From an uncultured Spirochaetota bacterium (GTDB taxonomy: Bacteria > Spirochaetota > Spirochaetia > SZUA-6 > Fen-1364), in the NCBI GenBank assembly GCA_963734545.1, contig CAVTHO010000007.1, positions 896,001 through 960,000 on the forward strand: a stretch of 64,000 nucleotides of DNA, written 5' to 3'. The notes beneath the pieces were generated by a model. That model made no database searches, was not told the DNA's origin, and was given only the letters and a program-made list of their open reading frames with translations. The position numbers and the translations under genes were made by a program. Positions within the stretch are counted from its first letter, which is position 1. Each line of letters opens with the position of its first letter. Positions 500-54,348 of this stretch are shown here, in pieces.

Positions 500-1211
500 A
501 TGAAGCATTCCCGCCTTCTCCTGGAGATGTCCCTTTTCTTCCTTGCATTCTTCCTGCCCGGGCTATCTTGCCCAGACACACCCTCCGGCCGCGGGCCCTG
601 CGTCCACCCTGGCGATGCTCCAGGTCATCGTGACGGGATTACCTCAGTTCATGCTCATGGCGTACGTTGCCACGCTTTCCGTTGGAAGAGCTCCTCGCAA
701 CTGGGGGCTCATTGCGCTCGAGCCGCGGGACGGGATTCGGATCCTTGTTCTCCTTGTCGGTTGTTTCGCGGTCGTCGCGCCCTTCGTGGCTCTTGCTCTC
801 GCGCTGCCTCCCCGATTCAGCAAATCACTGACGCTGGGGTATCGCTGGGGACTGCTGAGCGTGACGCAGATTCCGATTGCGCTTCTGTTCGGTCTCACCG
901 CAGGCTATCGTGAAGAGTTCTTCTTCCGCTCATACCTGCTGGGCAGGCTCGGCCAGCTCGGAATTCCCGTACCGATCGCGGCAATCGCATCAACAGCCCT
1001 TTTCAGCCTCGGCCACATATACGAAGGCCCTCTGGGCGTCGCCATTGCGGCAGCGCTGGGGGCACTTTTCGCCGCGGTTTATATCCGCAGGCCGAATCTC
1101 CACGTCATCGCGATTTCCCACGGCCTGTACAACGCCATCGTGCTCTGGCTGAGCCTTCTGATTCCCAGCTCGTTGCCCGCCGCAGCCGGAAACCTTATCT
1201 TCCGTCCATGA
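500..1211 (+). CDS. CPBP (CAAX protease/Abi family) intramembrane metalloprotease; one apparent frameshift near 560
   Basis: Motifs YREEFFFRSY, LFSLGHIY and HGLYN in a hydrophobic protein; the N-terminus MKHSRLLLEMSLFFLAFF is in another frame. Confidence 0.8.
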
Positions 1212-6934: not shown

Positions 6935-7036
6935 TTCGACACGCTCTCTACCCGATCGCCGCCGGGCCGCGACAGGCTTTTCAGGGAGTCGACTTGGTCA
7001 GGCGAAGACTCTCGATAACGAGGCGCACTCCACGGA

Positions 7037-9011
7037 TCATGCAGGCGGGTTCTCGGCGACTCCCCCTGGAGCGGGAACGCCGTCCTGCTCGACCGATTCC
7101 ACCGACTCCGCCTCCGCGATGTTCTCGATGGTGTCCACGATCCCGGCGGCATCCCGCGTCGGCAGGAACTGCTCGCCGCCGGGCGTGGCAGTCCCCGTGG
7201 ACTCCTCCCGCAGCTTGAGCGTCTCTCCGAACCACGAGAACGCGGCAGCCAGCCGGTCCGTCATCTGGCGCATGTCGTGAGACACCTCCAGGATCGAGCG
7301 GATGAGCGTGTCCACGCCCGCCAGGCCGTCCTGGATGTCCGTGTGCGCACGGCTGACGTCCTCCAGGGCGCGGGAGTTGTCCGCAGATCATCGTGCGGAT
7401 CTCTTCGCTCCGTTTCATGATCTCGAAGAACCCCGTGCCCAGCCCCTTGATCCGGTTGACGCCCTTCTCCACGCCGCGGTTCGTGTCCTTGATCACCGCG
7501 CTCACCTGGTCGGACACGGTGCGCGTGAGATCCGCCAGCTTGCGGATCTCCTGCGCCACGACGGAGAACCCTTGCCCGGCCGCGCCCGCCTTCGCGGCCT
7601 CGATGGAGGCGTTGAGGGAGAGCATGTGGGTCTTCTCCGCGATGCCGATGATCTGGCTTACCGCCTTGCGGATGACGATTGACCGCTGGTACAGCGCTTC
7701 CATTTCCCGCAGCGTTTCCTGGATCTGCGCATTGAAGCTCGTGATCAGGCCGTCCACCTGCTCCGTGTACCCGAGGATGTCCTTTTCCTTTGCCACGACC
7801 CGGGATTCGCCGGTGCCGGCCTCCTCGAGGGAAATGATGAGCCCGCCGATCGTAAATGACTGCTTCTGAGCGCTTTCCAGGAGCTTGCCGGAAAGCTTCG
7901 TGATGTCGACGTTACGTTTTTCCAGCAGCTCCTTGCCCTCGCGGATCCGCTCGATCATCTCCCAGTCGCTTTCGATCCTCCCGATGAGCTCCTGGCTGGT
8001 CTGCCGGTACATGGACTGCGTGCGGGAGAGCTCGCTCAGGAGCAGCGTGCCCTCGAAGAGCGGAATAAGCAGGCCGGGGAGGAAGGAGAAGAGCCCGAGC
8101 CGGGGAAGAAAAAGGTCGGCAAAGACCCCGGCGCCGAGGGCAAGGAAAAGCGCGACGCCCAGGGAGAAAGGCAGCAGCGCGCGCCGTAAACCTGCTTTGA
8201 GCCTGCCCACTAGGCACATCAGCGCAAGAACGGCGAACGAGACGGCAAGAACGCCGCGCGTGGCGGTTTCCGCGATCTCCATGACGTCCACACGGGTGGA
8301 CACCACGACCACGCATGCGGCCAGGAAAGGAGGGAGGACGAGAGGAAGGAGAAAGCGCAGCCGTGCGGCCTTCAGCAGCTCGAGCGTTGCCTGCGCGAGA
8401 AAAAGCGCGGTCAGGAAAAACGCGATGACGCCCAGCTTCAGGGCGAGTACCGGAGAGATGAACCCCACGACGTATGAGGGAAGGACTTCTGAGGCGGCAT
8501 TCGCAAAAAGGGCGAAAACAAGGAAAAGGGTTTCCCGCGACCGCTGGCGGGCAAAGAGCGTGAGAAACTGAAATGCCAGCAACAGCGATAGAAGTCCCGC
8601 AAAGACCCGCAGCGGCACCACGGGCAGGTTGAGGAGCGCGAGCCGCGCGCCCAGGCCCTCCAGAGGGACGATCAACAGCACGGGCGGGAAGGAAGTGGCG
8701 GGCGACTGCGCGAGTTGAACGGTGAGAACGTGCGCGCTCACGGAATCCGACTTCGGGAGCGGATAGCCGCGGTACCCCGGCACGCCGCCGGTCACCGGCC
8801 GACCGATGACCTGGCTGTCGAAGGAAATCTCCTGCGCCGCGGCTGTCGGGCCCACCACGAGGGCGTATTGCCCCGACGCGAGGTTCCCCTCGCTTCGCAG
8901 CCCAGCGCCGGAGCCTGCGGCGGCGGGAGTCCACGTGGCGCCGAGATCGGCCGCCCCGAGCGATATGCATGCGGCGAGCAGGAGGAGTGAGATCGGCAGG
9001 AGTTTTCTCAT
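7037..9011 (-). CDS. Methyl-accepting chemotaxis protein with extracytoplasmic domain and about 7 TM helices (7TMR-DISM-like); frameshift near 7385
   Basis: Signal peptide [15 protein letters not shown], seven hydrophobic segments, MCP hairpin [37 protein letters not shown]. Confidence 0.8.
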
Positions 9012-9052
9012 CAAGGGCTCCTGCAGCATAGTATAGAGAGAAACATGGCTCA

Positions 9053-10936
9053 ATGAAAGACGAGCGCAGGCGGCATGCCGCGCCGTCAGCCGACCCGCGC
9101 CCCGCCTGCTCCGATTTGACAGGCGATACCGGCGGTGGTACCGTTAGAGGGGTCGTGACAGAGGTCGTTCTCAAAATCATCGAAGAGTTCTCCGATGGCT
9201 TTCTCATTCTCAACGAGGACGGGCGCATAGTCTTTTTCAACGAGCTGCTTCTGAAGACCCTGGGGCTGCGCGCCGCGGACGTTTTTGCCCATGAAGCGGA
9301 CCTCCTGGCCCGTCTCGGGATCGCCTCCCCCTACGAGCCTTCCGAGCGCGAAGTGCTCGTGGAAGACCGCGGGGGAACGCCCCGGCGCCTGCTCGTATCG
9401 TCGCTTGCCGTGGACGGCAACAGAGGCCAGTACATACTGGCGCGCATCAAGACGGCCCCCTCCCGGGGCAACGGCTCCTCAGGGCTCGCGCGCAGAGAGC
9501 TCGAGCAGCTCTTCCGCAACATCGGGGACCCCCTCATCACGGCCGATCTCGGCGGCGTGATCACCTGCGCAAATCCTTCTTTCTACAAGCTGATCGAGTG
9601 GGAACAGGGCAAGGCCCTTCCCAATATCGCCGAGCTCTATGCCCATTCCGCGGAGCTCGAGGACAAGATCCTGCGGCTTGCCGAGTCGGACATGGTCTTC
9701 AATCTGGACACGCACCTCGTGACCGGGGCGAGACAGCCGAGACGCGTTCTGGACACCTCGTGGGTGCTGCGAGACGATCATGGCGTGGTCACGGGCTACA
9801 CGAGCCACCTCAAGGACCTCACCTACGTCAAGAACCTCGAGACGCGCCTGAAGATTTCCGAGCGCAACTACATCGTGCTCTTCGATACGATTCTTTCCTC
9901 GATCGTCCTCGTCGACCCGTCGGGAAAGATCCTCAACTGCAACTACTACGCGGAAGAAATGTACGGCTACCGCTGGGCCGATCTTGTCGGGAAGCAGTTC
10001 GACGAGGTGTTTCAGGTGCGCGACAAGAATCTCGGCATCCTTCAGCTCATGGCGCTGGTGGACGGGAACAAGGGCAGGTACGTGGAGACGGACGTCCCCC
10101 GCAGGTGCAGGGACGGATCCATCAAGTTCACCTACGCCTCCTACTCCGCGCTCACCAGCACGGCGGGAGAGATAATCGCCTACGCCATCATGGAAAGGGA
10201 CCTGAGCGAGCGCGTCCGGCTGGAAAAAAAGCTGCAGGACTCGTTCCAGCAGATCCGGGACACCCAGTCAGCGGCCATACTCGGGTTTGCGCGGCTCACC
10301 GAGTACAGGGACATGGACACCGGCAAGCACCTCGAGCGCCTGCGCGAGTACACGCGTGTCATCGCTCTCGGCCTGGCAAAACTGCCCACGTACGCCGGGT
10401 ACATCACCGCTGACTACGTGGACGACCTCTGCCTGTCCTCGGTGCTGCATGACGTGGGCAAGGTGGGAATCGAGGATGCGGTCCTGCGCAAGCCGGGGAA
10501 GCTCAGCCCGGCGGAGTTCGAAAAGATCAAGCAGCACGCCCGGCTCGGAGGAGAGGCGCTGAGCGCGGTGGACAGAGAGCTCAAGCAGAAGTCGTTTCTG
10601 ACGATCGGCAAGGAGATCGCATTCTCCCATCATGAGCGCTGGGACGGATCGGGGTATCCGGCGGGAAAGAAGCAGGACCAGATACCGCTCTCGGCCAGGA
10701 TCGTGGCTCTCGCGGACGTCTACGACGCGCTCACGAGCAAGCGCAGCTACAAGGACGCGCTTTCTCATGAAGAGGCCGTCCGGATCATCGTGAAGGAGCG
10801 GGGCACGCATTTCGACCCGGAGATCGTGGATGTCTTCCAGCAGAACCTCGATGCGTTCCGCCGCATCCACATGCTGGAGTCGTTCAAGACGGACCTCAAG
10901 AGCATGGACGACATCCTGAAAGCGGGCCGCCCATAG
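9053..10936 (+). CDS. Multi-PAS HD-GYP cyclic-dinucleotide phosphodiesterase (true start may be slightly downstream)
   Basis: Three PAS-like repeats, then [38 protein letters not shown]. Confidence 0.9.
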
Positions 10937-36024: not shown

Positions 36025-37350
36025 AACCGGGATGAGTGACATGAGCCTGCGCATCGAGGTCCCCTACGTCACCCGGGTGGAGGGGCACGGAAACATCGTC
36101 ATCGACATGAAGGAAGGAAAGCTGCTCACCTCCCATCTCGAGGTGGTGGAGCCTCCCCGATATTTCGAGGCCATGCTCAAGGGCTACCCGTATACGGACA
36201 TCGCGTTGATCACGTCACGCATCTGCGGCATCTGCTCCGTCGGGCCACCAGATGACGTCGCTGAAGGCCACCGAAAAGGCGCTCGGCATCGGCGTGAGCG
36301 AGCAGACCGTTCTTCTGCGCAAGCTTCTCGTCTACGCCGCCACGATGCAGAGCCACGTTCTGCACATCTATTTCCTTGCGGCCCCTGATCTCCTCGGAGT
36401 GCCTTCAGTCGTCCCGCTGGCCGCAACGCATCCGGACGTGGTCAAGATGGCGCTGCGCATGAAGAAGCTTGCCAACGACATCTGCGACAAGCTCGGGGGA
36501 AGAACCATCCACCCGAACAGGCTCGTACCGGGAGGATTCACCAGGCTCCCTTCCCTGGCCGATCTCACCTGGATCCGCACCAGGCTGGAGCAGCAGATGG
36601 TGCCGGATGCCAAGGCGTCCCTCGCACTCCTCAAGGGCCTGCTTCCGAAGTTTCCGACATTCCAGCGGGAGACGGAATACATCGGGCTGTCTCACGAGAA
36701 GGAATACGCCTTCTACGACGGTGACGTGGCCTCGACGGATGCGGGGCATTTCCCCGTGGACGACTATCTCTCCGTGACGAATGAGTTCGTCGTGCCGCAT
36801 TCCACCTCCAAGCATTGCCGGCATGCGCGGTCCTCGTACTTCGTCGGCGCGCTCGGCAGGTTCAACAACAACTATCAGCGTTTGAACCCGCTGGCAAAGA
36901 CCGTGGCGGCGGAGCTGGGGCTGGCCCCGGTGGTGAAAAACCCCTTCCTCAACACCGCGGTGCAGCTCGTGGAGACGGTGCACGTGGTGGAGGAATCACT
37001 GAAGCTCCTGGATGACCTCCTGGTCAGGGGCATCAAGGAGGAGAAGCCCGTGGTGCCGGAGAGGCTGCGGGAAGGCCGCGCCGCCGAGGCAACCGAAGTA
37101 CCCCGCGGCATCCTCTTTCACGACTACACGTACGACAACCGCGGCCAGGTGGTGAAGGCCAACTGCATCATTCCCACTACGCAGAACACCCAGTGCATCG
37201 ACGATGACATGACGGAGCTGGTGCCCTGGATGCTCGAGCAAGGGCATGACGAAAGACCAGATGACCCTGACCCTGGAGATGCTTGTGCGCGCGTACGACC
37301 CGTGCATCTCCTGCTCGGTGCATTTCCTTGACGTGGAGTTCAGGGAATGA
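36017..37350 (+). CDS. [NiFe] hydrogenase large (alpha) subunit, group 3b-like; frameshifts near 36245 and 37245
   Basis: TRVEGHG, L1 motif RICGIC, EVPRG, L2 motif DPCISCSVH followed by a short cleavable tail. Confidence 0.9.
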
Positions 37351-39330: not shown

Positions 39331-41648
39331 GTGATCAGAAAGCGCTTCCTCTTCCGCGGCACCATCCAGGGGGTCGGATTCCGGCCGGCGATCTACCGCC
39401 TGGCCGTCTCCCTCGGGCTTCCGGGCTTCGTGCAGAACCGCCGATCGGAGGTCGTCGCCGAGGTGCAGGGTGATGAGGAGGCGCCTGGGGCGTTTCGCGT
39501 CCCTGCTCGCCGCCTCCCTTCCTCCTGCCGCGCGCATCGAATGCCGTCACGTCGACGCGTGATCGAGCCGCGGACGGACGAGAACGGGTTTCAGATCGTC
39601 GAGAGCGCCGCGGACGTCTACGCCTTTCCGCCCATCCCGCCCGACCTCCCTGTCTGCGCGGACTGCGCGCGGGAGCTCCTGGATCCCGCGCAACCGCCGG
39701 TACCTCTACCCCTTCATCACCTGCACCCAGTGCGGCCCGCGGTACTCGATCGTGCCAGCGCACGCCCTTCGACCGGGAGAACACCTCGATGCAGCCTTTC
39801 ACGCAGTGCCCGGCGTGCGCGGCCGAGTACACGGACCCGGCGGACCGGCGGTTCCACTCCCAGACGAACTCGTGCGCCGCGTGCGGCCCCACGGCTTGCC
39901 TGCATCGACGCAGGCGGCAGGCCGCCGGGACGGCGATCCGCTCGCCGCGGCCGTCAGCCGCACTCGCGGAGGGAATGATCGTTGCAGTCGAAGGTATCGG
40001 CGGCTTTCACCTTGCCGCCGACCCGAGGCACCCAGGGGCCATGGCAAAGCTCCGACGGGACAAGGAGCGTGAGCGAAAACCGTTCGCGCTCATGGTCCGC
40101 GACATCGAGGAGGCCCGCGCGCTGTGCCATCTCTCGCCGATGGACGAACGGCTGCTCGTGTCTCCCGAAGCGCCCATCGTGATCGCTCCGCGAAGACCGG
40201 GCTCTCCCGCCGTGGCTCCGCGATGTCTCGGACACCGACACGCTCGGCATCATGCTCCCCTACACCCCCCTGCACCTGCTGCTCTTCCGTCACCCGGGCG
40301 TCGACGATCCCCTATGGCGCACCTGGTCATGACCTCGGGCAATCGCGCGAACGAGCCGATCATCACCGATCCCGACGAGGCGCGCGAGAAGCTCGGCGGC
40401 GTGGCGGATGTCTTCCTCTGCCACGATCGTCGGATCGTGTTCCGCACGGATGATTCCATCGTCCGCGCCGGGCGCATCCTCCGCGCCGTTTCTCCTTCGC
40501 AGATCGCGCGGGTACGTGCCGCGCCTGCTCTCGCTGGCCTCCGGATGTGCGCGGCGTCGTGCTGGGGGTCGGAGGCGATCTGAAGAACGCCCCGGCACTG
40601 GCACGCGGGCGCGACGCTCCACCTCTGCCCCTTCAACGGGGACCTGGAGGATCCCGTCACCCTCTCGCAGTTCGATGACACGATCCGGCAGGTCCTGGAG
40701 CTCTACGGCGTCACGCCGGATCTTGTCGTGCGCGACATGCACCCCCTCTACCACTCGTCCCGGTGGGCGCAAAACCTCCCCTGGCACGGGATTGCCATTC
40801 AGCATCATTTCGCCCATGCGCTTTCGGTGATGGCGGAGCACGGGCTGGAAGAAGTCATTGCGCTCACGTTCGACGGCACCGGCTACGGGACCGACGGCAC
40901 GGTCTGGGGCGGAGAGTTCCTCCATGCCACCAGGCAGAGCTTCACGCGCCTGGGGAGCTTCGCGCCCTTTGCGCTCCCGGGAGGGGAGGCAGCGGTCCTG
41001 AACCCGGCACGCATCGCATTCGCCCTGCTGGCGGAGAGCAGGGCGCCCGAATCGATGAAAGGGGCAGGAATTCCAGGGATAGACGCCCGCCAGGGGGAGT
41101 TGCTGCGTGCCATGCTCGACCGCGGCGTGAACTGCCCTGTCACCACCTCACTCGGGCGGGTATTCGACGCCGCTGCCGCCATCCTCGGCCTCGTCGAGCA
41201 GGTGACCTATGAAGGAGAGGGACCGATCAGGCTCGAGGGTTTCGGCCTGAGCGCATTCACTCCGGGGAATTCGGGGCTCGCTGAAAAGCAAGCCGCCGCG
41301 CTCCTTCCTTTTCTACCGTCTACGGGAGACGAGCGGCTCTTTCTCATCGACCCTCGCCCTCTCCTCTCTCATCTGCTGACGGAGCGGAAAGCGCGCGCTG
41401 TCCCGGCGCTTTCCCTGGTTTTTCACGAGGCCATCGCTCGCGCGTCCCTGCAGGGCGCGAGGAAGCTGCGAAGCGCCACGGGGATTTCCCGGATCGCCCT
41501 CTCGGGAGGAGTCTTCCAGAATCTCCTCCTGCGCGAGCTTCTGGTGCCCCTCTTGATCAAAGAAGGATTTGAGGTTTTCCTCAATGTGCAGGTGCCTCCG
41601 GGAGACGGCGGGCTCTCCGTCGGGCAGGCGTGGTTCCAGGAAAGCTGA
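39331..41648 (+). CDS. hypF: Hydrogenase maturation carbamoyltransferase (frameshifted in assembly)
   Basis: [14 protein letters not shown] and CPAC Zn fingers, [41 protein letters not shown]. Confidence 0.92.
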
Positions 41649-41897: not shown

Positions 41898-42974
41898 GCG
41901 GGGAGCGGGAGCTGGCCTCCGCGCTGGTCGCCGAGATCGAAAGGACCGCTGCCGGCGATCGGTCGTCCCGTTCGAATCATGGAGGTCTGCGGCACCCATA
42001 CCGTGGAGCTTCGGCGGCAGGGGATCCATTCACTTCTCCCGCGCGGCATCGCACTCGTGTCGGGGCCCGGCTGCCCGGTGTGCGTGACACCGGCGGGCTA
42101 CGTGGACAACGCCCTCTCGCTCGCCGAGTCGGGGCGCGCCGTCATTGCGAGCTTCGGAGACATGCTGAAGGTCCCCGGCTCGTCCGGTCGCTCGCTCGCT
42201 TCGCTTTCCGCCGGCGGGCAGGCGAAGCTCGTGTACTCTCCCGCTGAGCTCGTCGGGATTGCCCGCACGTCCGGCGCGCCCGTGGTCTTCCTTGCCGTGG
42301 GATTCGAGACGACGATCCCCACCGTCATGTCAGCGCTTCTGGAGGCTCGGGACAAGGGAATCGACAACCTCTATCTCTACACGGCTTTCAAGACCGTGCC
42401 TCCTGCGCTCCGCTTCCTCCTTGCCAACCCGGAGCATGGCATCGACGGGTTTCTCCTCCCCGGGCACGTGTCCGTTGTCATCGGAGCAGACGCCTATGGG
42501 TTCCTCGAAGGTCCGGAAGGAAGACCGGGGGTCATCACCGGCTTCGAGCCCCTCGATATGCTCCTTGGCATACTCCTGGTTCTGCGCCAGGTCCGCAAGG
42601 GCACACGCCGCGTGGAAAACGCCTACCCGCGCGCCGTGCGGCCCGGCGGTAATCCGCGGGCACGCGGCATGATGGAGCGCACGCTCGAGCCCCGGGACGA
42701 AACGTGGCGCGGGCTGGGTGTGATTCCCGGCGCGGCGCTCGGTCTGAAGCCCGCGCTTGCAGAGAGTGATGCGGCAAAGGTCTTCTCGCTTCCCGCGGCG
42801 GCGGATGCCGAAGCGCCGGGCTGCATCTGCGCGCGGGTCGTGGCAGGCATGGCGACGCCGCCCCAGTGCCCGCTTTTCGGCGCCCGGTGCACTCCCGATG
42901 ACCCCGTGGGACCCTGCATGGTTTCTTCCGAGGGAACATGTGCCGCGTATTTCCGCTACGGAGACGGGATGTGA
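41894..42974 (+). CDS. hypD: Hydrogenase maturation protein
   Basis: MEVCGTHT, GPGCPVC, GFETT, PGHVS, GPCMVSSEGTCAA. Confidence 0.95.
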
Positions 42975-43980
42975 AGGAAGAAGGCCTCATCCGGCTCGAG
43001 CACGGCAGCGGCGGCGCGCTCTCGCGCGACCTTGTCGAATCCGTGATCCATCCCTTCTTCCGCTCCGCGTCCTACCCCGAGCTTTCCGACTCGAGTCCCG
43101 TGGAGGCCGGTTCCGAATTCCTGATGACGACAGACGGCTACGTGGTCGATCCGCCTTTCTTTCCCGGCGGAGACATCGGCGGCCTTTCCGTCTGGGGCAC
43201 CTGCAACGATCTGGCAGTTTGCGGCGCAAAGCCGATCTGTGTGTCCCTGGCGCTCGTTCTCGAAGAGGGATTTGCCGTCGCTGACCTGAAACGTGTCCTC
43301 GGGTCCGCGGCCGCGGCGGCGAGGGAGGCGGACACGCGGATCGTGACAGGAGACACCAAGGTGGTTCCCCGGGGAAAGGGGGAGGAATCTTCGTCACAAC
43401 GGCTGGCCTGGGAAGACGCACATTCCCGGGGGTGCTGTCCCCCTCACGCATCCGGGAAGGTGACAGCGTGATCATTTCCGGTCCCATTGGCTCGCACGGA
43501 TTGACCGTGCTCGCTGCGCGTGAGTCGCTTCCGGTCGCCGGCGCGCTGCGCTCCGACATGGCCTTTCTCTACCCTCTGGCGAGCCTGCTCTTCCCCCTGG
43601 GGGATTCACTGCGTTTTCTCCGCGATGCGACCCGGGGCGGCATCGCCGCTGTGCTGAACGAGGCGGTGCACGGTGCGGCCTGGGGAATCAGGATGGGGGA
43701 AGCGGAGATCCCGGTCACGGAGGAAGTACGCACGGTGGCGGACCTTCTCGGCCTGAATCCGCTCGAGATCGCAAATGAGGGAGTATTCGTCGCGGTTGTG
43801 GCTGCTCCGGCGGAAGCGGCCGCGCTGCAGGCCTTGCACGCACACCCCCTGGGCAGGGCCGCGCGCCGTGTCGGACATGTCTCCATCGAGAATCCAGGTA
43901 CTGTTCTCATGACCACGAGGATCGGCGGGACAAGGAGAGTTGATTTTCCGAGGGGGCTTCTGCTGCCCCGGATCTGCTGA
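42971..43980 (+). CDS. hypE: Hydrogenase maturation dehydratase; frameshift near 43380
   Basis: HGSGG, GDIG, NDLA, TGDTKVV, RDATRGG, ANEG, C-terminal LPRIC. Confidence 0.95.
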
Positions 43981-45007: not shown

Positions 45008-45096
45008 ATTGAAAAATCGGCATAACGGCAGGCTTTTGGGGGTTGGAGTTTCTTTACATATGGAATATCCTTGTACTGGCGAAGCCATAGAGCGTT

Positions 45097-47406
45097 TTGG
45101 CGGAGGAGGCAGGGGAAATTCCAGCCCATATGCGGGAGTTGGTTCTCTTCACGCTCGAGGACACTCACTACGGCATCTGGAGGGATCAGATCCTCTCGAT
45201 GGAGGCTGTACAGTCGCTGCATCGACTGCCGTTCGCCAGATCGAGCCTGACCGTGCTGTCGGTATATGGCGGGCAGACCCAGACACTGGCCGACCTGCCG
45301 CTGTGCCTGGGGCATCCGGCAACCAGGGACGCGAAAGGGGCGAACGCCTGGCTGTTGTCCGAACGGGAGTCGATCCGCGGATTCCTCGTGAGCGGAGAAA
45401 GCGCGTCAGTCCAGGTATCTCCGGAGACTCTTGTTCGCGTACCCGACTTTCTGCGCGGCCTTCCAATAGAAGCTTTTTTCGACCACGACTCTCTCCCGGT
45501 GCCCGTGCTCAACGTCTCCGCCATTCATGAGCGAGTACGCAAAGCCGAGCGGGAGAAGCCCGCGCCCCCCCTGGCCCTGCATGCGCTGCCGGCCCGGCAA
45601 TCGAGTCCTGCAGCCAGGTTCAGGGTTTTTACTTCATCAGGGAGCCTCTTCGCCGCTCCCGGCGCCGACGTTGCAGAGGTGACCTTGAGCGGCCGCCGGG
45701 TTGCGCGCCTGCCGCTCCTCCCGCCGAACATCGAGGGAGTGGCGCTTTCGCACAACAGCGTCATTCCTGTCGTCGATCTTGCCCATCGCGTAAGCGGAAA
45801 AAACAGCCAGGAGAACTCCCGGATCCTCGAAGCGAAACTGGACGGTGCCGCCCTCGGCTTTCTCATCGACGAGGATGAGGGGGAATGGACTTCGGCAGAT
45901 GTCATGGTCAAAGAGCTCCCGCCGGTCCTGCGCGCGCCGTGGATGGGCGCGGCGGTGCTCCGAGGTGCACACGTCGCCCCCCTCATCGACCTCGGCGCTC
46001 TGCTGTCCAGCCCTGCCAGGAGCGCAAGCGGCAGCCCGCATCCACGTCCCTATTCGCCTGATTCACGGTTTCCCGCTGTGTTCGGGCACCAGCCGGTCGA
46101 GGTCATCGAGTTTTCCGCTCTCGGCACGATCTTTGCGGTTCCACAGAGTGAAGCGGCGGATGTCCTGCCTTGTCAGCCGTTCCAGGAGTTCCCCCTGGCC
46201 ACCGGGCTCGTGGCAGGCCTGGCGGATTTCGGCGGCGAGCTTGTCCCCGTCATCGACCTGGCCCGGATTGGCGGAGAATCTCCGCAGAGAACCGCAGATT
46301 GGCGGATGATCGTGCTCAAGAACGGAGATTTCAGAGCGCTCGTCGTGTGCGCAAGCACGCGCGCCGCGCGCACGCTCGAGCGCGAGGTGCAGCGTGACGT
46401 GCCTGTTGTGCTCCCCTTCCCGGTTGTCTACGGGTGCTATACCGACGGGGAGGCCGTCCGGCTCGTCCTGAATATCGAAGAGCTCACGGTACATTACCAC
46501 CAGTCCGACGCCGCGCTTCTTCTGCCTGTTCTTGCGAAGGCCGCGGGAGAAGGCCCGATAGGCGCCCCGGTCACCCACCATGCGCAGGAGCCGGTGCTGC
46601 CTGCAATGGTTCCCACGGAGCCTGCCGTTCCTGCCCACGCTGTCGAGAGACCTGTTTCTCCCGGCCAGGATCTGGCGGAACCTGTTGTTCCGGCGCAGGA
46701 CATGCCGCAGCCTCCCCTCTCCGCCCCTGCCGCAGAGGAAGGATCTCTGACAGAGCTCCCGATGCCTTCCGAACCCCCGCTCCCGGCTGAGCTCGAGCTG
46801 AGCTCTCTGGAGCCAAGTCCCGAAGAGCCTGCTCCCGCGGAATCCGTTCCGCTGGAGCCCAGCCCGGTGGCCGAACGGCAGGCGCCGACCGAATCGGCTC
46901 CTTCCCTTGGGGATGAATTTGGATTCGAGCCGGTTCAGCCGGCTGAAACAGCCGCCCCGCGGACGCCCACCCCTGCCGGGCCCGAACCTGCGCGACAGGA
47001 TGAAAGGCCGATCTCTCGATCAAAGAAGCCCGCGCCCGCTCGCGGGAGAGTAGTGAGGCGAGTGCTGTTTGCGGCGGCAATCGCCATACTCGTGGCCGCG
47101 GGCGTCGTTGCGGGTCTCCGTCTTGGAATATTCCTGCCCCGGCCGGCCGTGCCGGCTGCACCGACCGCACCTGCTGTGCCGGTCGCACCGGCCGCACCGA
47201 CCGACCTGAAGTCGGACGCCACGACAAGTACGGAGTCCTCGCCTCCCGCGGATACGCTCTATGTCGTGAAACAGGGCGATACGCTGTGGGACATCGCTGC
47301 CCGGTTCACGGGGGACCCGCACAACTTCCGCGGCCTCGCCGCACACAATGGAATAGCGGATCCTGATGTGATTTCTCCCGGGCAGGTGATCAAGGTGCCG
47401 CGCTAG
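45097..47406 (+). CDS. Triple CheW-like domains, Pro/Glu-rich linker, TM helix and C-terminal LysM domain
   Basis: Three repeats ending QTLADL / VIPVVDL / LVPVIDL; RGRVVRR followed by VLFAAAIAILVAAGVVAGL; YVVKQGDTLWDIAARF...NGIADPDVISPGQVIKVP. Confidence 0.8.
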   Translation: MAEEAGEIPAHMRELVLFTLEDTHYGIWRDQILSMEAVQSLHRLPFARSSLTVLSVYGGQTQTLADLPLCLGHPATRDAKGANAWLLSERESIRGFLVSGESASVQVSPETLVRVPDFLRGLPIEAFFDHDSLPVPVLNVSAIHERVRKAEREKPAPPLALHALPARQSSPAARFRVFTSSGSLFAAPGADVAEVTLSGRRVARLPLLPPNIEGVALSHNSVIPVVDLAHRVSGKNSQENSRILEAKLDGAALGFLIDEDEGEWTSADVMVKELPPVLRAPWMGAAVLRGAHVAPLIDLGALLSSPARSASGSPHPRPYSPDSRFPAVFGHQPVEVIEFSALGTIFAVPQSEAADVLPCQPFQEFPLATGLVAGLADFGGELVPVIDLARIGGESPQRTADWRMIVLKNGDFRALVVCASTRAARTLEREVQRDVPVVLPFPVVYGCYTDGEAVRLVLNIEELTVHYHQSDAALLLPVLAKAAGEGPIGAPVTHHAQEPVLPAMVPTEPAVPAHAVERPVSPGQDLAEPVVPAQDMPQPPLSAPAAEEGSLTELPMPSEPPLPAELELSSLEPSPEEPAPAESVPLEPSPVAERQAPTESAPSLGDEFGFEPVQPAETAAPRTPTPAGPEPARQDERPISRSKKPAPARGRVVRRVLFAAAIAILVAAGVVAGLRLGIFLPRPAVPAAPTAPAVPVAPAAPTDLKSDATTSTESSPPADTLYVVKQGDTLWDIAARFTGDPHNFRGLAAHNGIADPDVISPGQVIKVPR

Positions 47407-47481
47407 GCTCGGCCTTTTGGCCCTGGACTGGGCGCCAACGGCGGACGAAGTCCGCTCCACGCGACCAGAGCGGTACTCCGC

Positions 47482-47608
47482 ACTCGCTCGCCCCTCGCCA
47501 TCCAACTCCGCGGAGTACCGCGGAAGGTCTACGGGCTCGCTTCCGTCCATCCCTGGACTCGCTCGCCCTCGGCATCCAACTCCGCGGAGTACCGCGGAAG
47601 GCCTACGG
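47482..47608 (-). repeat. Two tandem copies of a GTAG-type REP-like palindromic element
   Basis: Copies at 47482-47534 and 47557-47608; minus strand GTAG(A/G)CCTTCCGCGGTACTCCGCGGAGTTGGATG...GCGAGCGAGT. Confidence 0.75.
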
Positions 47609-49522: not shown

Positions 49523-50368
49523 TCAGCTGTAGACGTACTCCTTCAGCTCATCGGAGAAGCTCCTGAGTTTCTTGAGCGCGCGGATTTCGATCTGCCGCAC
49601 CGTTTCGGGCGAGATCCCGAGCTCGTCTCCGATCTTCTTCAGCGTGTAGCGCTTGCCGCTGGCAAAAGAGAATCGGTACAACAGAATCTGCCGTTCTTTC
49701 TCCTGCAGGCCGTCGAGAAACTTGAGCGTGTCCTCTCTCAATGTCTTCTGCATGAGCTCCAGCTCGGGGTTGAAGGACATATCTTCAACGACATCGTGAA
49801 GGCTGCCGGAATCTCCCGCGAGGGTGGAATCCAGGGAGGCAACGCTGATGGAAGAGTTGATGATTGACGCGACCTCGTCTTCCTGCAGCCCGATTTCCTC
49901 CGCGATCTCCAGGAGTGTAGGCTCGCGCATGAGCACCTGCGAAAGATTGTTGTACACCTTGCTGATCTTTCGCAGCTTTTCCTCCTGACGGTGAGGAAGC
50001 CTGATCACTCTCTTCTTGTTGGACAACGAGCGAACGATCGACTGCTTGATCCACCAGGACGCATACGTGCTGAAACGCACCTGCTTCCTGAAATCGTACT
50101 TTGATGCCGCTCTCATGAGGCCGAGGTTGCCCTCCTGAATGAGATCGAGAATCGACACTTCCGGCGTAAGGTAGCTCTTCGCAATCCGCACCACCAGGCG
50201 GAGGTTGGACTCTATCAGGAGCGTTCGTGCCTGCTCGTCTCCGGCCTGTATCCGGCGGGAAAGCTCTAATTCTTGTTCGAACGTCAGGAGCTTTGCCTTT
50301 TTGATCTGGCTGAAGTAGGCTTTGAGGTTATCTTCGAAGGAAGTCGAAATCTCCCTCTTCCTGCTCAT
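49523..50368 (-). CDS. Alternative sigma70-family factor lacking region 1.1 (RpoS-like)
   Basis: SNLRLVVRIAK, DLIQEGNLGL, RFSTYASWWIKQ, IRLP, TLKKIGDELGISPETVRQIE; about 281 aa. Confidence 0.88.
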   Translation of the reverse strand: MSRKREISTSFEDNLKAYFSQIKKAKLLTFEQELELSRRIQAGDEQARTLLIESNLRLVVRIAKSYLTPEVSILDLIQEGNLGLMRAASKYDFRKQVRFSTYASWWIKQSIVRSLSNKKRVIRLPHRQEEKLRKISKVYNNLSQVLMREPTLLEIAEEIGLQEDEVASIINSSISVASLDSTLAGDSGSLHDVVEDMSFNPELELMQKTLREDTLKFLDGLQEKERQILLYRFSFASGKRYTLKKIGDELGISPETVRQIEIRALKKLRSFSDELKEYVYS

Positions 50369-50391
50369 CAAACACTCCTGGAAAGAACAAA

Positions 50392-50407
50392 AGCAAAATC
50401 CATGCCA
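50392..50407 (-). promoter_or_regulatory. sigma54 (-24/-12) promoter for the RpoS-like gene
   Basis: Minus strand TGGCATGGATTTTGCT (GG-N10-GC; consensus TGGCAC-N5-TTGCW), just upstream of RBS AGGAG. Confidence 0.75.
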
Positions 50408-50525
50408 CTAGGGAGATGTACAACAATCAAAGTATTTCTTTATCTGGCAAATAGATACTTAACATCCTTTCCGGGCGACAATACATCCAGCTCAATTGTA
50501 CTTTTTTTGATACAATCTTCAAGTA

Positions 50526-50828
50526 TTATTTTGATGATACTTGCCTGTATATCATGTCGGAAAGGCCGAACTGGGCGGTTTCTGCCATCTTCTTCGCGTA
50601 CTCGTCGTAGAGCATTCCCTCGAAAATGTCCTGGCTCATCCCCCCGTTGAGCAGATCATCTCCTTTGTGGACGGTTTTCCGCATAACGTCAAGCATCTGT
50701 TTGATGAACAGCGCCTCGAAATCCTGGCACGCCTTGTACAGCTCGCTGTTCCGGTCTATTGCCGGCTTCTTCGGCTGCGAGCTGTTCATCGGGTATGCAT
50801 ATACGTTGTTCAGGCTTGTGACCTGCAT
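50526..50828 (-). CDS. flgJ: Short FlgJ (rod-binding domain only)
   Basis: LYKACQDFEALFIKQMLDVMRKT, IFEGMLYDEYA. Confidence 0.88.
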   Translation of the reverse strand: MQVTSLNNVYAYPMNSSQPKKPAIDRNSELYKACQDFEALFIKQMLDVMRKTVHKGDDLLNGGMSQDIFEGMLYDEYAKKMAETAQFGLSDMIYRQVSSK

Positions 50829-50839
50829 GTCCCGCCCTT

Positions 50840-51853
50840 TCACATGACAATGAGGCTGCCGAACAGGGCCCCCGCCCTTTCGACGGCCTGGAGCACGCCG
50901 ATTATCACGTCAGCTTTCAAACCCACGGCCTTGAGAGCAGAAACGAAGTCATCCACCGTCGTGGTATCCCCTATCACGAACACATCCGGCGGTCCGGAGG
51001 CGGCTTGCGATGCCGCACCCACGGTGACCCGCGCCGTGCGGTAGGAGACCGCCACCTTTCCGATCCGGACTTTTTCTCCCATGACAATGACGCCCCCGGC
51101 GGCGTTGATGACCACCCTGCCGTCTGAGTCCGGAGTGACGGTGAGCGCTTCAAGCTGGGCGAGAAACCCGACCGGGTTCGCCCTGCTCGCCTGGGGGAGC
51201 TGCACTTCGATGAGTGACGCGTCACGGCTCGTGACGGAGATGCCGGAGAAGGCCGCCTCGATCGCCTTCTGCACGGCGCTGGCCGTCACGAAGTCCGGGT
51301 TGCGCAGGAGGATGGAGACGACATTGTTGTCCAGGTACTGGGACACGACTTCCTTTTCCACGATGGCGCCCGCGGCAATGGCCCCCACGGTCTTCGCGCC
51401 GTTCTGCTCCTGCGTCGTCATCACGCGCCCCTGCGCAACAGCGTAGGTCTGGCCGTTGGCTGCCTGGAGATTCGCCTGCAGGAGGATGCCGCCGTCCAGG
51501 TCCCGCGCGTCACCGATACTGGAGACCGTGACATCGATTCGGTCCCCGGCCCTTGCAAATGGGGGCAGCTCCGCATTCACCATGACTACGGCTGCATTCT
51601 TGCTCCGGATGTCCTGGGGAGCCACGGATACCCCGAAACTCGCCACGAGAGAGGAAAGGGAGGAGCGCAGAAGAGACGAGGTGGACGAATCCCCTTTGCC
51701 ATTGAGCCCGGTGACGAGTCCGAGCCCGAGGATCTGGTTTCCCCTTACGCCCCGCAGGGTGGCGATATCCTTGATCCGAACGGTGGGAACCGCCATGGCG
51801 GAGACACCTGCCGCCGCGATGAACAGAAGAGCCAGGAATCTACGGGAGCTCAA
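50840..51853 (-). CDS. flgI: Flagellar P-ring protein
   Basis: RIKDIA, NQILGLGLVTGLNGKGD, KNAAVVMV, SSIGDA, YAVAQG, PDFVTA. Confidence 0.92.
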   Translation of the reverse strand: MSSRRFLALLFIAAAGVSAMAVPTVRIKDIATLRGVRGNQILGLGLVTGLNGKGDSSTSSLLRSSLSSLVASFGVSVAPQDIRSKNAAVVMVNAELPPFARAGDRIDVTVSSIGDARDLDGGILLQANLQAANGQTYAVAQGRVMTTQEQNGAKTVGAIAAGAIVEKEVVSQYLDNNVVSILLRNPDFVTASAVQKAIEAAFSGISVTSRDASLIEVQLPQASRANPVGFLAQLEALTVTPDSDGRVVINAAGGVIVMGEKVRIGKVAVSYRTARVTVGAASQAASGPPDVFVIGDTTTVDDFVSALKAVGLKADVIIGVLQAVERAGALFGSLIVM

Positions 51854-52698
51854 CTTCCACCACCTTCGCGTCGACAACCCGGCCGATGAAGCTTCTCTGG
51901 CTGTCCGCCACAAACACCGCTACCTTGCCGCCCATCGCGCGCCGTTGCCATGGCTTTCCCTGGCATCTCGATTGTGATGGGTCCTTTGCGGAAGATCACG
52001 TCCACCGGAGCTCCCGATCTCACGCCGTCCGTCGAACCGGATGCACCCGCGGGCGCCGAGAATGAAACCCTGCCCGAAACCGAGCTGCCGCTCGACCCTG
52101 TCAGCGAATAGGAAACCTCGACGGATCCATTGGCGGCCTTCACAACCTGGAAGAGGGGATTCCCATCGATGGGAAGGCTCCCTTTGAGCTGGCTTTGCAC
52201 GAGCGAGAGCTCCGTGCACGCGGCCCCCACCAGGCCCTGGGAGGACAGGAAATCCACGAGACGCGTGAGCAGGTATGTCTCCTCCTCGGGCAGCGCACCG
52301 CGGGGAACCACAATGGTGCGCGAGCCGACGATGATCGAATCCCTTCCGAACACGGCTTCGAGCTGCTCCCGATAGAGAGCCGCGGGGATGAGCAGAACCT
52401 TGTCTCCTGCGACGGCGATGCTACGGGCGAGCGTCTCGCGCGCCGCGGCGGGGATGTCCCCTGCGGCACGCACCAGGTCGCCGAGGCTGACGTCACCGGG
52501 ATCTGCCGTAACAAGCCGATTGACGTAGAGTGTCGTTCCCTGCGCCTCGACGACACCTGCAAGAGAGAGCGCGAGCACGAGAACTGGCAGGAAAAGAATC
52601 CGCGGGGTACCGCGATGCAAGAGAATCCGCGGGGTGCCGCGATGCAAGAGAATCCGCGGGGTGCCGCGATGCTCACATCGGCGCGGAGCACGCCTCAT
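51840..52698 (-). CDS. Probable P-ring chaperone FlgA-like protein; frameshift near 51935
   Basis: Lies between flgG and flgI; C-terminal VRSGAPVDVIFRKGPITIEMPGKAM resembles the FlgA C-domain; signal-peptide h-region present. Confidence 0.6.
52594..52672. repeat. Three tandem 27-bp palindromic units AAGAGAATCCGCGGGGT(A/G)CCGCGATGC within the flgA-like 5' end
   Basis: Directly visible; encodes (HRGTPRILL)x3, last unit ending ILF, on the minus strand. Confidence 0.9.
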
Positions 52699-52708
52699 CG
52701 CGCCGACC

Positions 52709-53503
52709 TTACCTCTTGAGCGAGGTTGCCGTGGCGAGCATGGAGTCAGAGGTCTGGATGGCCCTCGAGTTCAGCTCGTAGGCTCTCTGGGCCACTATCA
52801 TGTTCACCATTTCCTTGACCACGGACACGTTGGACATTTCCAGGAACTTCTGCTGCACCTTGCCCATGCCGTCGAAACCCGGGCGGCCGGGGATTGCGTC
52901 ACCGGATGCATTCGTGGTCTTCATCAGGTTCTCGCCGATCGATTCGAGACCCGCCGGATTCACGAAGCGGTAGATCTCAAGCTGGCCGACCTCGATCGGA
53001 TCGTCGCTTCCGGCAACCTTGACCGTGATCCTTCCATCCTGCGAGATGCTCAGGCTCTCGTTCACGAATCCTTCGGGCAGGATGACCTCGGGGGAGAGCT
53101 TGTAGCCGCCCGATGTCACCAGCTGGCCGTTCGAATCGATCTTGAACGACCCGTCGCGGGTATAGCCGTACGTGCCGTCAAACTGCGTCACGCGGAAAAA
53201 CCCCTCGCCCTCGATGGCCATGTCAGCGGGGTTCCCCGTGGCCTGGAGCGCACCCTGCGTGAATATCTTCTGGGTGGCGGCAGGCTTGACGCCGTGGCCT
53301 ACCTGCACGCCGGTGGGAACCACGGTGGCTTCCGTGGCGGGAGTGCCCGCGAGCCTCTCGGTCTGGTAGAGCAGGTCTTCGAAATCGGCCCGCATCTGCT
53401 TGAAGCCCGTCGTGTTCACGTTCGCCAGGTTATTGGAGATCGTGTCGATGTTGAATTGCTGCCCCGTCATTCCCGACGCGGCCGTCCACAGTGATCTCAT
53501 CAT
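52709..53503 (-). CDS. flgG: Flagellar distal rod protein
   Basis: MMRSLWTAASGM, ISNNLANVNTTGFK, FEDLLYQ, YTRDGSF, LEMSNV, AQRAYELNSR. Confidence 0.95.
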   Translation of the reverse strand: MMRSLWTAASGMTGQQFNIDTISNNLANVNTTGFKQMRADFEDLLYQTERLAGTPATEATVVPTGVQVGHGVKPAATQKIFTQGALQATGNPADMAIEGEGFFRVTQFDGTYGYTRDGSFKIDSNGQLVTSGGYKLSPEVILPEGFVNESLSISQDGRITVKVAGSDDPIEVGQLEIYRFVNPAGLESIGENLMKTTNASGDAIPGRPGFDGMGKVQQKFLEMSNVSVVKEMVNMIVAQRAYELNSRAIQTSDSMLATATSLKR

Positions 53504-54348
53504 ACTTTCACCACCTCATTCCACAGCTTGCCGATCAGAGCATCCTCGGTCTGGATCGTCTTCTGATTCGCGTCGTAGGCCCGGTTCACTTCGATCATCT
53601 CGACCATTTCCTGGACCGCGTTGACGTTGGCCCCTTCGAGAAATCCCTGCCGCACCTTGGGCCGCGTGTCGGGACCCATGATCTCCGCGGGACCTGATTC
53701 ATCGGTGGCGCGCCAGTAGGAGTTGCCCTGCTTTTCCAGGTAGCGCCTCCGCGAGACGTCCACGATCTTCAGCCTGTCCACCTTCTCGATGTTCTCCCAC
53801 TGGTTTTCCGCCTGGCTCACGAGGCGCTTGTCATCCGTAGCGAACGTCGAGTTCTGCCAGACGGTTCCATCCTGATCGATCACGAAGTTGTTTTTCTTCA
53901 GCTTGATGGGGCCGTTCTCGCCGAGCACGAAGTCGCCGGTCTTGGAGACCAGGTAGCCGTCGCTGTTGACCAGGAACGCCCCGTTGCGCGTGAGCCGCTC
54001 CCCCTGGGGTGTCTGCACGGTCATGAAGCCGCTTCCCTCGATGGCAAGGTCGAAGTCGTTCTCCGTCTGCTTCAGCGTACCCTGGGTGAAATTGGTATAG
54101 ACCTCGTTGGTCTCCACGCCAGTTCCCAGGGTCCCCACGATAGGCGCCGTGTCCACGGAGCCGAACGGGAATTTGTACATCCCATCGTCGTTCATGCGGC
54201 GCATGAGCATCTCGGGAAACGCCTTCTGGATGGCGGTGTCCTTCTTGTAGCCGTTGAGGTCGACATTCGCCAGGTTGTTGGCGATCTCGTCCAGGCGGTT
54301 CTGCTGAACGTTCATGCCGCTGGCGGCGGTAAATAGCCCTCGAACCAC
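53500..54348 (-). CDS. flgF: Flagellar basal-body rod protein FlgF/FlhO
   Basis: GLFTAASGM, ANNLANV, TRNGAF, QGFLEGANVN, NRAYDANQK. Confidence 0.85.
   Translation of the reverse strand: MVRGLFTAASGMNVQQNRLDEIANNLANVDLNGYKKDTAIQKAFPEMLMRRMNDDGMYKFPFGSVDTAPIVGTLGTGVETNEVYTNFTQGTLKQTENDFDLAIEGSGFMTVQTPQGERLTRNGAFLVNSDGYLVSKTGDFVLGENGPIKLKKNNFVIDQDGTVWQNSTFATDDKRLVSQAENQWENIEKVDRLKIVDVSRRRYLEKQGNSYWRATDESGPAEIMGPDTRPKVRQGFLEGANVNAVQEMVEMIEVNRAYDANQKTIQTEDALIGKLWNEVVKV

Follow-up and report, generated by a model that had tools for sequence, protein, structure and literature searches.

To our knowledge, the placement and holding of chemosensory arrays are understood in only a few proteobacteria (HubP/FimV, ParC, ParP) and are open in spirochaetes, where the arrays lie near the motors in very thin cells. 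In the accessible parts of the published accounts, the CheW/P5-like AIF domain of ParP enters the array core unit via the tip of the methyl-accepting chemotaxis protein (MCP) and CheA (PMC5706961), and in P. putida FimV, ParC and ParP work in concert (bioRxiv 10.1101/2025.10.27.684771). Similar excerpts describe CheWS of T. denticola as anchored to arrays by its CheW domain (PMC10653840), and spirochaete arrays with a CheW-CheR-like protein and strong curvature (PMC7666581). Here we describe a gene whose product joins three CheW-like domains to a transmembrane (TM) helix and a C-terminal LysM (the triple-CheW gene). It lies in 64,000 nucleotides of DNA from an uncultured Spirochaetota bacterium (GenBank assembly GCA_963734545.1, contig CAVTHO010000007.1, positions 896,001 to 960,000 of the forward strand; this whole stretch is called the window). 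That the product is an inner-membrane protein of a conserved family, with a cytoplasmic triple-CheW module, a linker, a TM helix and a periplasmic LysM, is well supported; its association with arrays is something we infer. The reading we prefer, tentatively and at a little under an even chance, is a scaffold, tethered to peptidoglycan, on which a chemosensory complex is held or nucleated, a one-polypeptide counterpart of the FimV/HubP-ParC-ParP system.

The gene had been described in an earlier note, made from the letters of the window, as an intact open reading frame (ORF) of 769 residues. The open frame stood (window 45097 to 47406, + strand, 769 codons counted from TTG), while its start was moved to ATG 45130, the most likely true start by sequence, giving a protein of 758 aa. 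We placed it there because the database gene call has 758 aa with the N-terminus MRELVLF, because these residues are common to all six relatives of 742-830 aa and 61-67% identity (P0004-P0008, as well as P0003, where an upstream extension precedes them), and because the 1-base indels in independent contigs lie at 45086-45128, upstream of 45130, with none listed within the ORF. A more distant relative, P0009, begins with MVLF. Residue numbers below refer to the 758-aa protein, except the Pfam LysM boundaries (722-768) and the linker and hydrophobicity positions between 481 and 674, which refer to the 769-aa ORF. The parts of the gene are as follows (pLDDT, predicted local distance difference test):

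45130..47406, + strand: triple-CheW/TM/LysM gene, 758 aa, from the database gene call and the starts of near relatives
45130..45549, + strand: CheW-like domain W1, residues 1-140, from the profile against E. coli CheW, the Pfam stretch and pLDDT mostly >90
45595..46038, + strand: CheW-like domain W2, residues 156-303, from structure match and profile
46087..46506, + strand: CheW-like domain W3, residues 320-459, the most conserved, with signatures NGDF..A and VVYGCY
46561..47040, + strand: disordered acidic Pro/Glu/Ala-rich linker, predicted cytoplasmic, residues 478-637, with a basic patch at its end
47050..47124, + strand: single TM helix, residues 641-665, a helix in the model, with the Kyte-Doolittle maximum of 2.73
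47125..47253, + strand: Pro/Ala-rich spacer, predicted periplasmic, residues 666-708
47254..47403, + strand: C-terminal LysM, residues 709-758, from Pfam and structure match

Pfam placed three stretches in the CheW family (PF01584; E 5.3e-29, score 101 bits, threshold 23.5) and residues 722-768 in the LysM family (PF01476; E 1.9e-11, score 44.1 bits, threshold 20.9). At E≤1 it found no family beyond these two, with neither a HAMP-like module nor a FimV C-terminal domain, and no NCBIfam family scored above its cut-off, LysM-type matches being sub-threshold only. By Pfam, composition and hydrophobicity, all parts of the order that had been read from the letters (three CheW, linker, basic patch, TM helix, Pro/Ala spacer, LysM) were present. 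The AlphaFold2 model of the full-length protein, built with 123 aligned relatives, had a mean pLDDT of 77.8 and a predicted template modelling score (pTM) of 0.66, with three beta-rich domains at pLDDT mostly >90. Residues 1-475 modelled alone reached a mean pLDDT of 87.5 and a pTM of 0.83, and on account of these values W1, W2 and W3 are predicted to share one defined packing, as one compact body and not as beads on a string. The LysM was modelled as beta-alpha-alpha-beta (strands 709-712 and 753-756, helices 719-727 and 730-739), and residues 707-758 matched the LysM of Kbp constructs with Z 8.8 and a root-mean-square deviation of 1.2 A over 52 residues.

The CheW fold of the three domains, also proposed in the earlier note, is certain. 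Modelled W2 (156-303) matched CheW structures 9a72_B (VIA-align Z 16.9) and 2ch4_W (Z 15.3), and modelled W3 (320-459) matched CheW of E. coli (6s1k_C, Z 15.1) and of T. tengcongensis (2qdl_B, Z 15.8). The W2 region also matched CheA P5 structures (Z 11.8-13.8). Structure searches returned W1 as a small barrel only, and its assignment comes from the family profile, which matched E. coli CheW end to end (E 6.4e-19); the corresponding values for W2 and W3 were 2.8e-17 and 4e-11. W3 is the most conserved of the three, with the family invariants N398, G399, F401 and A403 and Y434, G435, C436 and Y437. The near-invariant motifs are encoded at 46321-46338 (NGDFxA, residues 398-403) and 46429-46440 (YGCY, with the invariant Cys436). 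Apart from the Gly aligned to G133, they have no counterpart in E. coli CheW, and they could be a partner-specific site.

The combination of domains recurs throughout a large family. A word-indexed search returned 12 relatives, each with CheW and LysM, and six relatives of 61-74% identity aligned over 99% of the query. An exhaustive HMMER search, run over 1.84 billion representatives, yielded 4195 matches with E≤1e-3; 465 of them had E≤1e-10, and 196, a number that counts clusters at 50% identity, had E≤1e-30. Among 159 distinct relatives retrieved, 141 had a TM helix followed by LysM, which lay at most 20 residues from the C-terminus in 140 of them. The remaining 18 comprised P0141, with a TM helix and an OmpA-family domain, P0159, with a TM helix and another tail, and 16 proteins of 393-753 aa that have neither TM helix nor LysM and may be fragments or soluble forms. 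Members of the family reach 1627 aa.

An assembly or frameshift error that joined two genes could in principle give such an ORF in an error-prone assembly, and there are other apparently split genes in the window (hypF, hypE and, in its tail, the MCP at 6981-9053). We give this explanation next to no credence: the same architecture is found in those 141 relatives from many sources, close relatives align over nearly their whole length, and independent contigs cross the domain junctions with no indels listed inside the ORF. These contigs, from four wetland-metagenome runs and of 85-99% likeness, derive from relatives of the source organism and not from its own reads; they cover the W3/linker junction (46028-46748 and 46253-46671), the linker, TM helix and spacer (46785-47189) and the spacer/LysM junction (47155-47404). 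The tail shared by relatives and the bridged junctions bear out the earlier view that this is a real gene. Of the sequencing runs, the best DNA runs shared ≤0.28 of words, and no RNA run was among those listed.

Residues 481-655 contain 39 Pro, 26 Ala and 23 Glu among 175, with a net charge of -14. In the model, the linker (478-637) had a pLDDT mostly <50 (block means 36-53) and no secondary structure. The sole strongly hydrophobic 19-residue window (656-674, Kyte-Doolittle 2.73) is preceded by the basic patch RSKKPAPARGRVVRR and followed by a Pro/Ala stretch. Linker and topology statistics were taken from 111 of the 123 aligned proteins, the other 12 being without TM helix or LysM. Family linkers measure 136-397 aa (median 257) and consist of 17.5% Glu, 13.8% Ala and 9.2% Pro; they are net negative in 106 of the 111 proteins. 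The periplasmic spacer ranges from 21 to 205 aa (median 52). Lys and Arg are more numerous in the 15 residues before the TM helix than after it in 81 proteins, equal in 14 and fewer in 16. This excess, together with a hydrophobicity scan that found no N-terminal hydrophobic segment in the triple-CheW protein, fits the orientation suggested before, with CheW inside and LysM outside.

In two relatives an OmpA-family domain occupies the LysM position behind the same CheW region and TM helix (L107:9227-11806, - strand, E 8.4e-15; P0141, E 2.9e-17). Because two unrelated peptidoglycan-binding folds are exchanged here, we read the tail as a probable wall binder, which sustains what had been proposed for the LysM, and the exchange points to periplasmic peptidoglycan binding as its selected function. 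The periplasmic location and the peptidoglycan binding of LysM are thus suggested by the TM topology and the LysM/OmpA exchange. The tail profile matched the LysM of TsaP (3jc8, E 6.7e-12) as well as other LysM proteins.

A periplasmic ligand-binding domain joined to cytoplasmic chemotaxis domains would also suit a transmembrane sensor, in which LysM detects the state of peptidoglycan or muropeptides and signals conformationally to the CheW module and then to CheA. We regard this as very unlikely. The segment between the TM helix and W3 is disordered in the model and ranges over the 136-397 aa given above, in proteins of up to 1627 aa; there is a single TM helix with no HAMP-like module found by Pfam, and LysM is interchangeable with OmpA-like domains. 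Together these features argue for tethering rather than conformational signalling. Being disordered in the model and so variable in length, the linker would be able to hold two things within a distance and unable to carry a conformational signal. For the same reason a relay of wall tension to CheA, raised in the earlier note, is unlikely.

Searches of the full-text literature found no published description of a CheW-LysM or CheW-OmpA protein, one of the queries being swamped by unrelated uses of the words; this agrees with the earlier statement that no characterised protein has this architecture. In the accessible part of PMC10653840, the described CheW architectures are CheV, CheA, 2xCheW, 3xCheW, CheW-CZB and CheWS, and 30 further Pfam architectures are listed as unstudied, among which CheW-LysM may be. 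The text of two of its supplements, in the portions accessible and with Fig. S10 outside the search, contained neither LysM nor OmpA. Relatives carry automatic JGI names such as 'chemotaxis signal transduction protein/LysM repeat protein'. The combination is therefore catalogued, not interpreted, and what is new here is that a CheW-fold scaffold and a LysM/OmpA wall anchor, each known, are joined in an uncharacterised combination.

As far as the accessible descriptions go, the protein resembles HubP/FimV in its LysM wall anchor, TM helix and long acidic cytoplasmic region, and ParP in its CheW/P5-like domain, which in ParP integrates into arrays via MCP tips and CheA (PMC5706961). It differs from the FimV/HubP-ParC-ParP system of Vibrio and Pseudomonas in being one polypeptide, with no ParC ATPase implied, in a spirochaete-like host. 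Its LysM is C-terminal whereas that of HubP/FimV is N-terminal, and Pfam found no FimV C-terminal domain. ParP has one AIF domain against three CheW-like domains here, and the N-terminal ParC-interaction region of ParP is absent, since the first strand of W1 begins at residue 2. With canonical CheW of E. coli and T. maritima it shares the fold (Z 15-17), end-to-end profile matches and, in W2 and W3, equivalents of G57, P67 and G133; unlike canonical CheW, it has three fused, membrane-anchored copies without R62, with a partial groove and with the VVYGCY/NGDF signature of W3. The accessible parts of PMC10653840 and PMC7666581 describe 2xCheW, 3xCheW and T. denticola CheWS, which likewise carry CheW in tandem or fused to an array-riding module; those proteins are cytoplasmic, without TM helix or wall-binding domain, whereas here a TM helix and a predicted periplasmic domain are present. 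Finally, the tail is akin to the LysM of TsaP and, through the OmpA-family substitutes in two relatives, to OmpA/MotB/Pal-type anchors, but these anchor secretins, stators or the outer membrane and not CheW-fold modules.

In the mechanism we propose, LysM (OmpA-like in some relatives) would fix the protein to peptidoglycan, and the triple-CheW module would dock at chemoreceptor tips, at CheA-P5/CheW ring positions or at both; W3 and W1, which keep most of the groove hydrophobics, are the most plausible contacts. The linker would bridge the distance from baseplate to membrane. A single polypeptide would thereby tie a chemosensory array to a set position on the wall, or nucleate it there, a task divided in Vibrio and Pseudomonas among FimV/HubP (with LysM), ParC and ParP (CheW-like). 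The baseplate lies about 25 nm below the membrane. By our own arithmetic a linker of 136 aa has a contour length of about 49 nm, which is compatible with reaching the baseplate; this minimum among the 111 relatives fits the earlier suggestion that the linker spans a distance.

Interface residues of E. coli CheW were taken from the accessible part of PMC13098124 and groove residues of T. maritima CheW from that of PMC5706961, and both were mapped onto the domain profiles; these are about 17% identical to E. coli CheW, so that mapped columns may be off by one or two residues. The columns read as follows (E. coli numbering):

L20, groove: W1 hydrophobic; W2 R in 79%; W3 hydrophobic
I33, groove: W1 K/R/E; W2 A/G; W3 K/R
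V36, groove: W1 hydrophobic; W2 hydrophobic; W3 V in 82%
I39, groove: W1 hydrophobic; W2 A/P/S; W3 hydrophobic
R62, commonest residues: W1 D 52%, G 15%, E 15%; W2 D 25%, N 16%, E 13%, R 12%; W3 D 21%, E 17%, N 17%, G 15%

Hydrophobic residues thus occupy three of the four groove positions in both W1 and W3. Also kept in W3 are the positions V105 (64% V), V87 (85% M) and V88 (I/L), the ring-interface residue R117 (R in 78%, K in 14%) and F75 (F in 80%). G57 is conserved to 99-100% in W2 and W3, and P67 to 82% and 98%, respectively. From these columns, a receptor groove in W3 and W1 is plausible. A complex prediction of the triple-CheW module (1-475) with two MCP tips of its own genome (L110 protein, residues 480-605), run without controls, gave a score of 0.00 and a mark of 0.32 and weighs neither way.

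Several observations speak against an array scaffold of this kind. Arg62 is conserved in none of W1, W2 and W3; the accessible part of PMC13098124 counts it among the residues important for binding of CheA and receptor. W2 keeps one of the four groove hydrophobics (V36), and neither it nor W1 has retained I33, V105 or V108. By these residues, canonical CheW coupling by the triple-CheW protein is doubtful. The shortest linkers would, by our own reasoning, need good stretching to reach the baseplate. The closest solved LysM, that of E. coli Kbp, belongs to what we take to be a cytoplasmic protein. No che neighbour of the gene was found in the window or at the other loci examined. The CheW region was present in 4 of 400 other genomes of a phylum sample (a tail-only match in 3 more) and in 11 of 91 other genomes of the order (a tail-only match in 13 more). 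In three genomes of the same genus (L112, L113, L114; completeness 91-96%) the site of the gene is empty, and the flanking genes lie 65-160 bp apart. The specific proposal of the earlier note that the CheW domains enter the baseplate found no support here: Arg62 is lost in all three domains and the groove is partial. There is no conserved che link, and close relatives dispense with the gene.

The same divergence favours a decoy or sequestering scaffold, which would draw CheA, CheW or some receptors off the main array, or nucleate a small complex of its own for one CheA paralogue, and so tune or divert signalling instead of anchoring that array. Three CheA loci and several CheW genes occur in the genome, the domains lack R62, a residue given as important for CheA/receptor binding in what was accessible of PMC13098124, and an accessory distribution fits a modulator. 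Against this, no CheA or other che gene is linked at any locus, and at the level of sequence such a decoy and an anchor are not separable; we consider the decoy rather unlikely.

The source genome comprises 5.14 Mb in 10 contigs and is 89% complete. FlaA, which sheathes the periplasmic flagella of spirochaetes, matched it five times and matched none of 14 control genomes. The source genome also has 23 MCP-signal matches and 3 matches to the CheA dimerisation domain, and judging from these the host is chemotactic. Its CheA/CheW matches lie on C6 at ~147-153 kb, on C7 at ~209-212 kb and ~713 kb and on C10 at ~27-31 kb, all away from the triple-CheW gene at C7 ~941 kb, so that its placement outside any che operon was confirmed.

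Within the genus the gene comes and goes. Seven of the 11 carriers in the order fall among 20 same-genus genomes. Two of these (L116, L121) have a copy of 71-74% identity at the same site, between the flavodoxin-like gene and tsaD, with flanks 80-98% identical, and five (L115, L117-L120) have a copy of 39-44% identity at another site, followed by a peptidase M16 gene. None of the three empty-site genomes had a match to the CheW region. Among the empty-site genomes, apt and the hyp genes are likewise retained in G464 and G456, and the contig of G465 ends within the flavodoxin-like gene. From the empty sites and the two divergent copies and sites within one genus, it follows that the gene is accessory, with fast turnover, and not a core array part. 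In the proposed mechanism it would be a lineage-variable add-on.

Upstream of the triple-CheW gene lie hyp hydrogenase-maturation genes, apt and the flavodoxin-like gene; downstream, on the other strand, lie tsaD and genes for a polysaccharide deacetylase, a sigma-70-family factor, a rod-binding protein, FlgI and FlgG, the flagellar rod and P-ring genes being 3-7 kb away. This proximity would also suit a flagellar-motor or pole-associated wall anchor, in which the CheW fold would be re-used as a generic interaction module unrelated to arrays. OmpA-like wall anchoring, typical of MotB-type stator proteins, counts for it, as does the presence of the sigma factor, rod-binding protein, FlgI and FlgG at 2-7 kb in the source genome and two close relatives. 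Yet the flagellar neighbourhood is limited to these three closest genomes, and the divergent same-genus copies and the distant relatives stand in unrelated contexts, which makes such an anchor distinctly improbable. Gene order around the locus is kept only in the closest relatives, and when the ORFs surrounding 12 relatives were compared all against all, no neighbour recurred beyond a single genus.

In a more specific form of the tethered scaffold, the triple-CheW module would supply a ready-made part of the baseplate lattice. It might make up one half of a six-membered CheW ring, or cover the three dimers of a single receptor trimer-of-dimers, and its linker, TM helix and LysM or OmpA tail would staple the array directly to peptidoglycan. 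We hold this to be unlikely; if true, it would be a ParC-independent, previously unknown way to fix, and perhaps shape, arrays in thin curved spirochaete cells. Readings other than those set out here take the remaining probability. With the tethered scaffold as the preferred reading, a family of about 200 clusters in which CheW-fold domains are joined to a wall anchor would link the array baseplate physically to the cell wall. The family also shows that selection maintains CheW-fold domains without the canonical Arg62 in a new context. With one gene, modular domains and natural LysM/OmpA swaps, it offers a testable handle.

Other features of the locus concern its flanks. The flagellar block (49523-54348, - strand) encodes a 282-aa sigma-70-family factor, a FlgJ-like rod-binding protein, FlgI, a 282-aa ORF and FlgG. 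Upstream of the triple-CheW gene, no sigma-70-like promoter was found on the + strand, and inspection by eye gave no convincing sigma-28-like motif. The gap between the gene and tsaD holds one further feature:

47440..47600, no strand assigned: REP-like dispersed repeat in two tandem copies, palindrome CCGCGGAGTACCGCGG

This repeat has 49 matches in its own genome and very high contig depth in wetland metagenomes; it lies outside the protein and flanks the locus that is empty in the three same-genus genomes. No Rfam family or tRNA was found around the triple-CheW gene or in the repeat.

Several genes of the window and genome look split or frameshifted. hypF is divided into ORFs at 39789-40583 and 40728-41648, and hypE into overlapping ORFs at 42938-43471 and 43432-43980. 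A NiFe-hydrogenase large subunit at 36252-37331 was matched over its first 54 residues only, beyond about residue 555 the frame of the MCP (6981-9053) breaks down, and one FlaA of the genome lies in two frames (C7:717611-718355). The split genes suggest long-read indel errors or pseudogenes, and ORF calls in the window need care.

A profile scan of genome contigs gave a best 80 loci dominated by the LysM motif, of which at least two (L013, L014) cover the CheW region; these numbers are no census. The best named relative among the matches listed was L013, a metagenome-assembled genome (MAG) of an uncultured Spirochaetota bacterium, at 43% identity. L014, a MAG labelled Pseudomonadota (the label being unconfirmed), also carries a protein of the family; the gene (L014:6847-13454) sits between a response-regulator-GGDEF gene and a PAS-GGDEF-EAL gene. 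FlaA gave no match in the L014 genome, and the protein was absent from all 60 other genomes of that order that were compared; a mis-binned contig or horizontal transfer is possible.

The tail also occurs without the CheW region. A tail-only paralogue of 300 aa (L101:1498-2397, - strand, corresponding to the C8:675702-676127 region of the source genome) combines an N-terminal Hsp70 substrate-binding-like piece (PF00012 414-507, E 1.8e-11) with an acidic stretch, a TM helix, a Pro/Ala spacer and LysM. Tail-only proteins of about 300-370 aa were found in 13 further genomes of the order.

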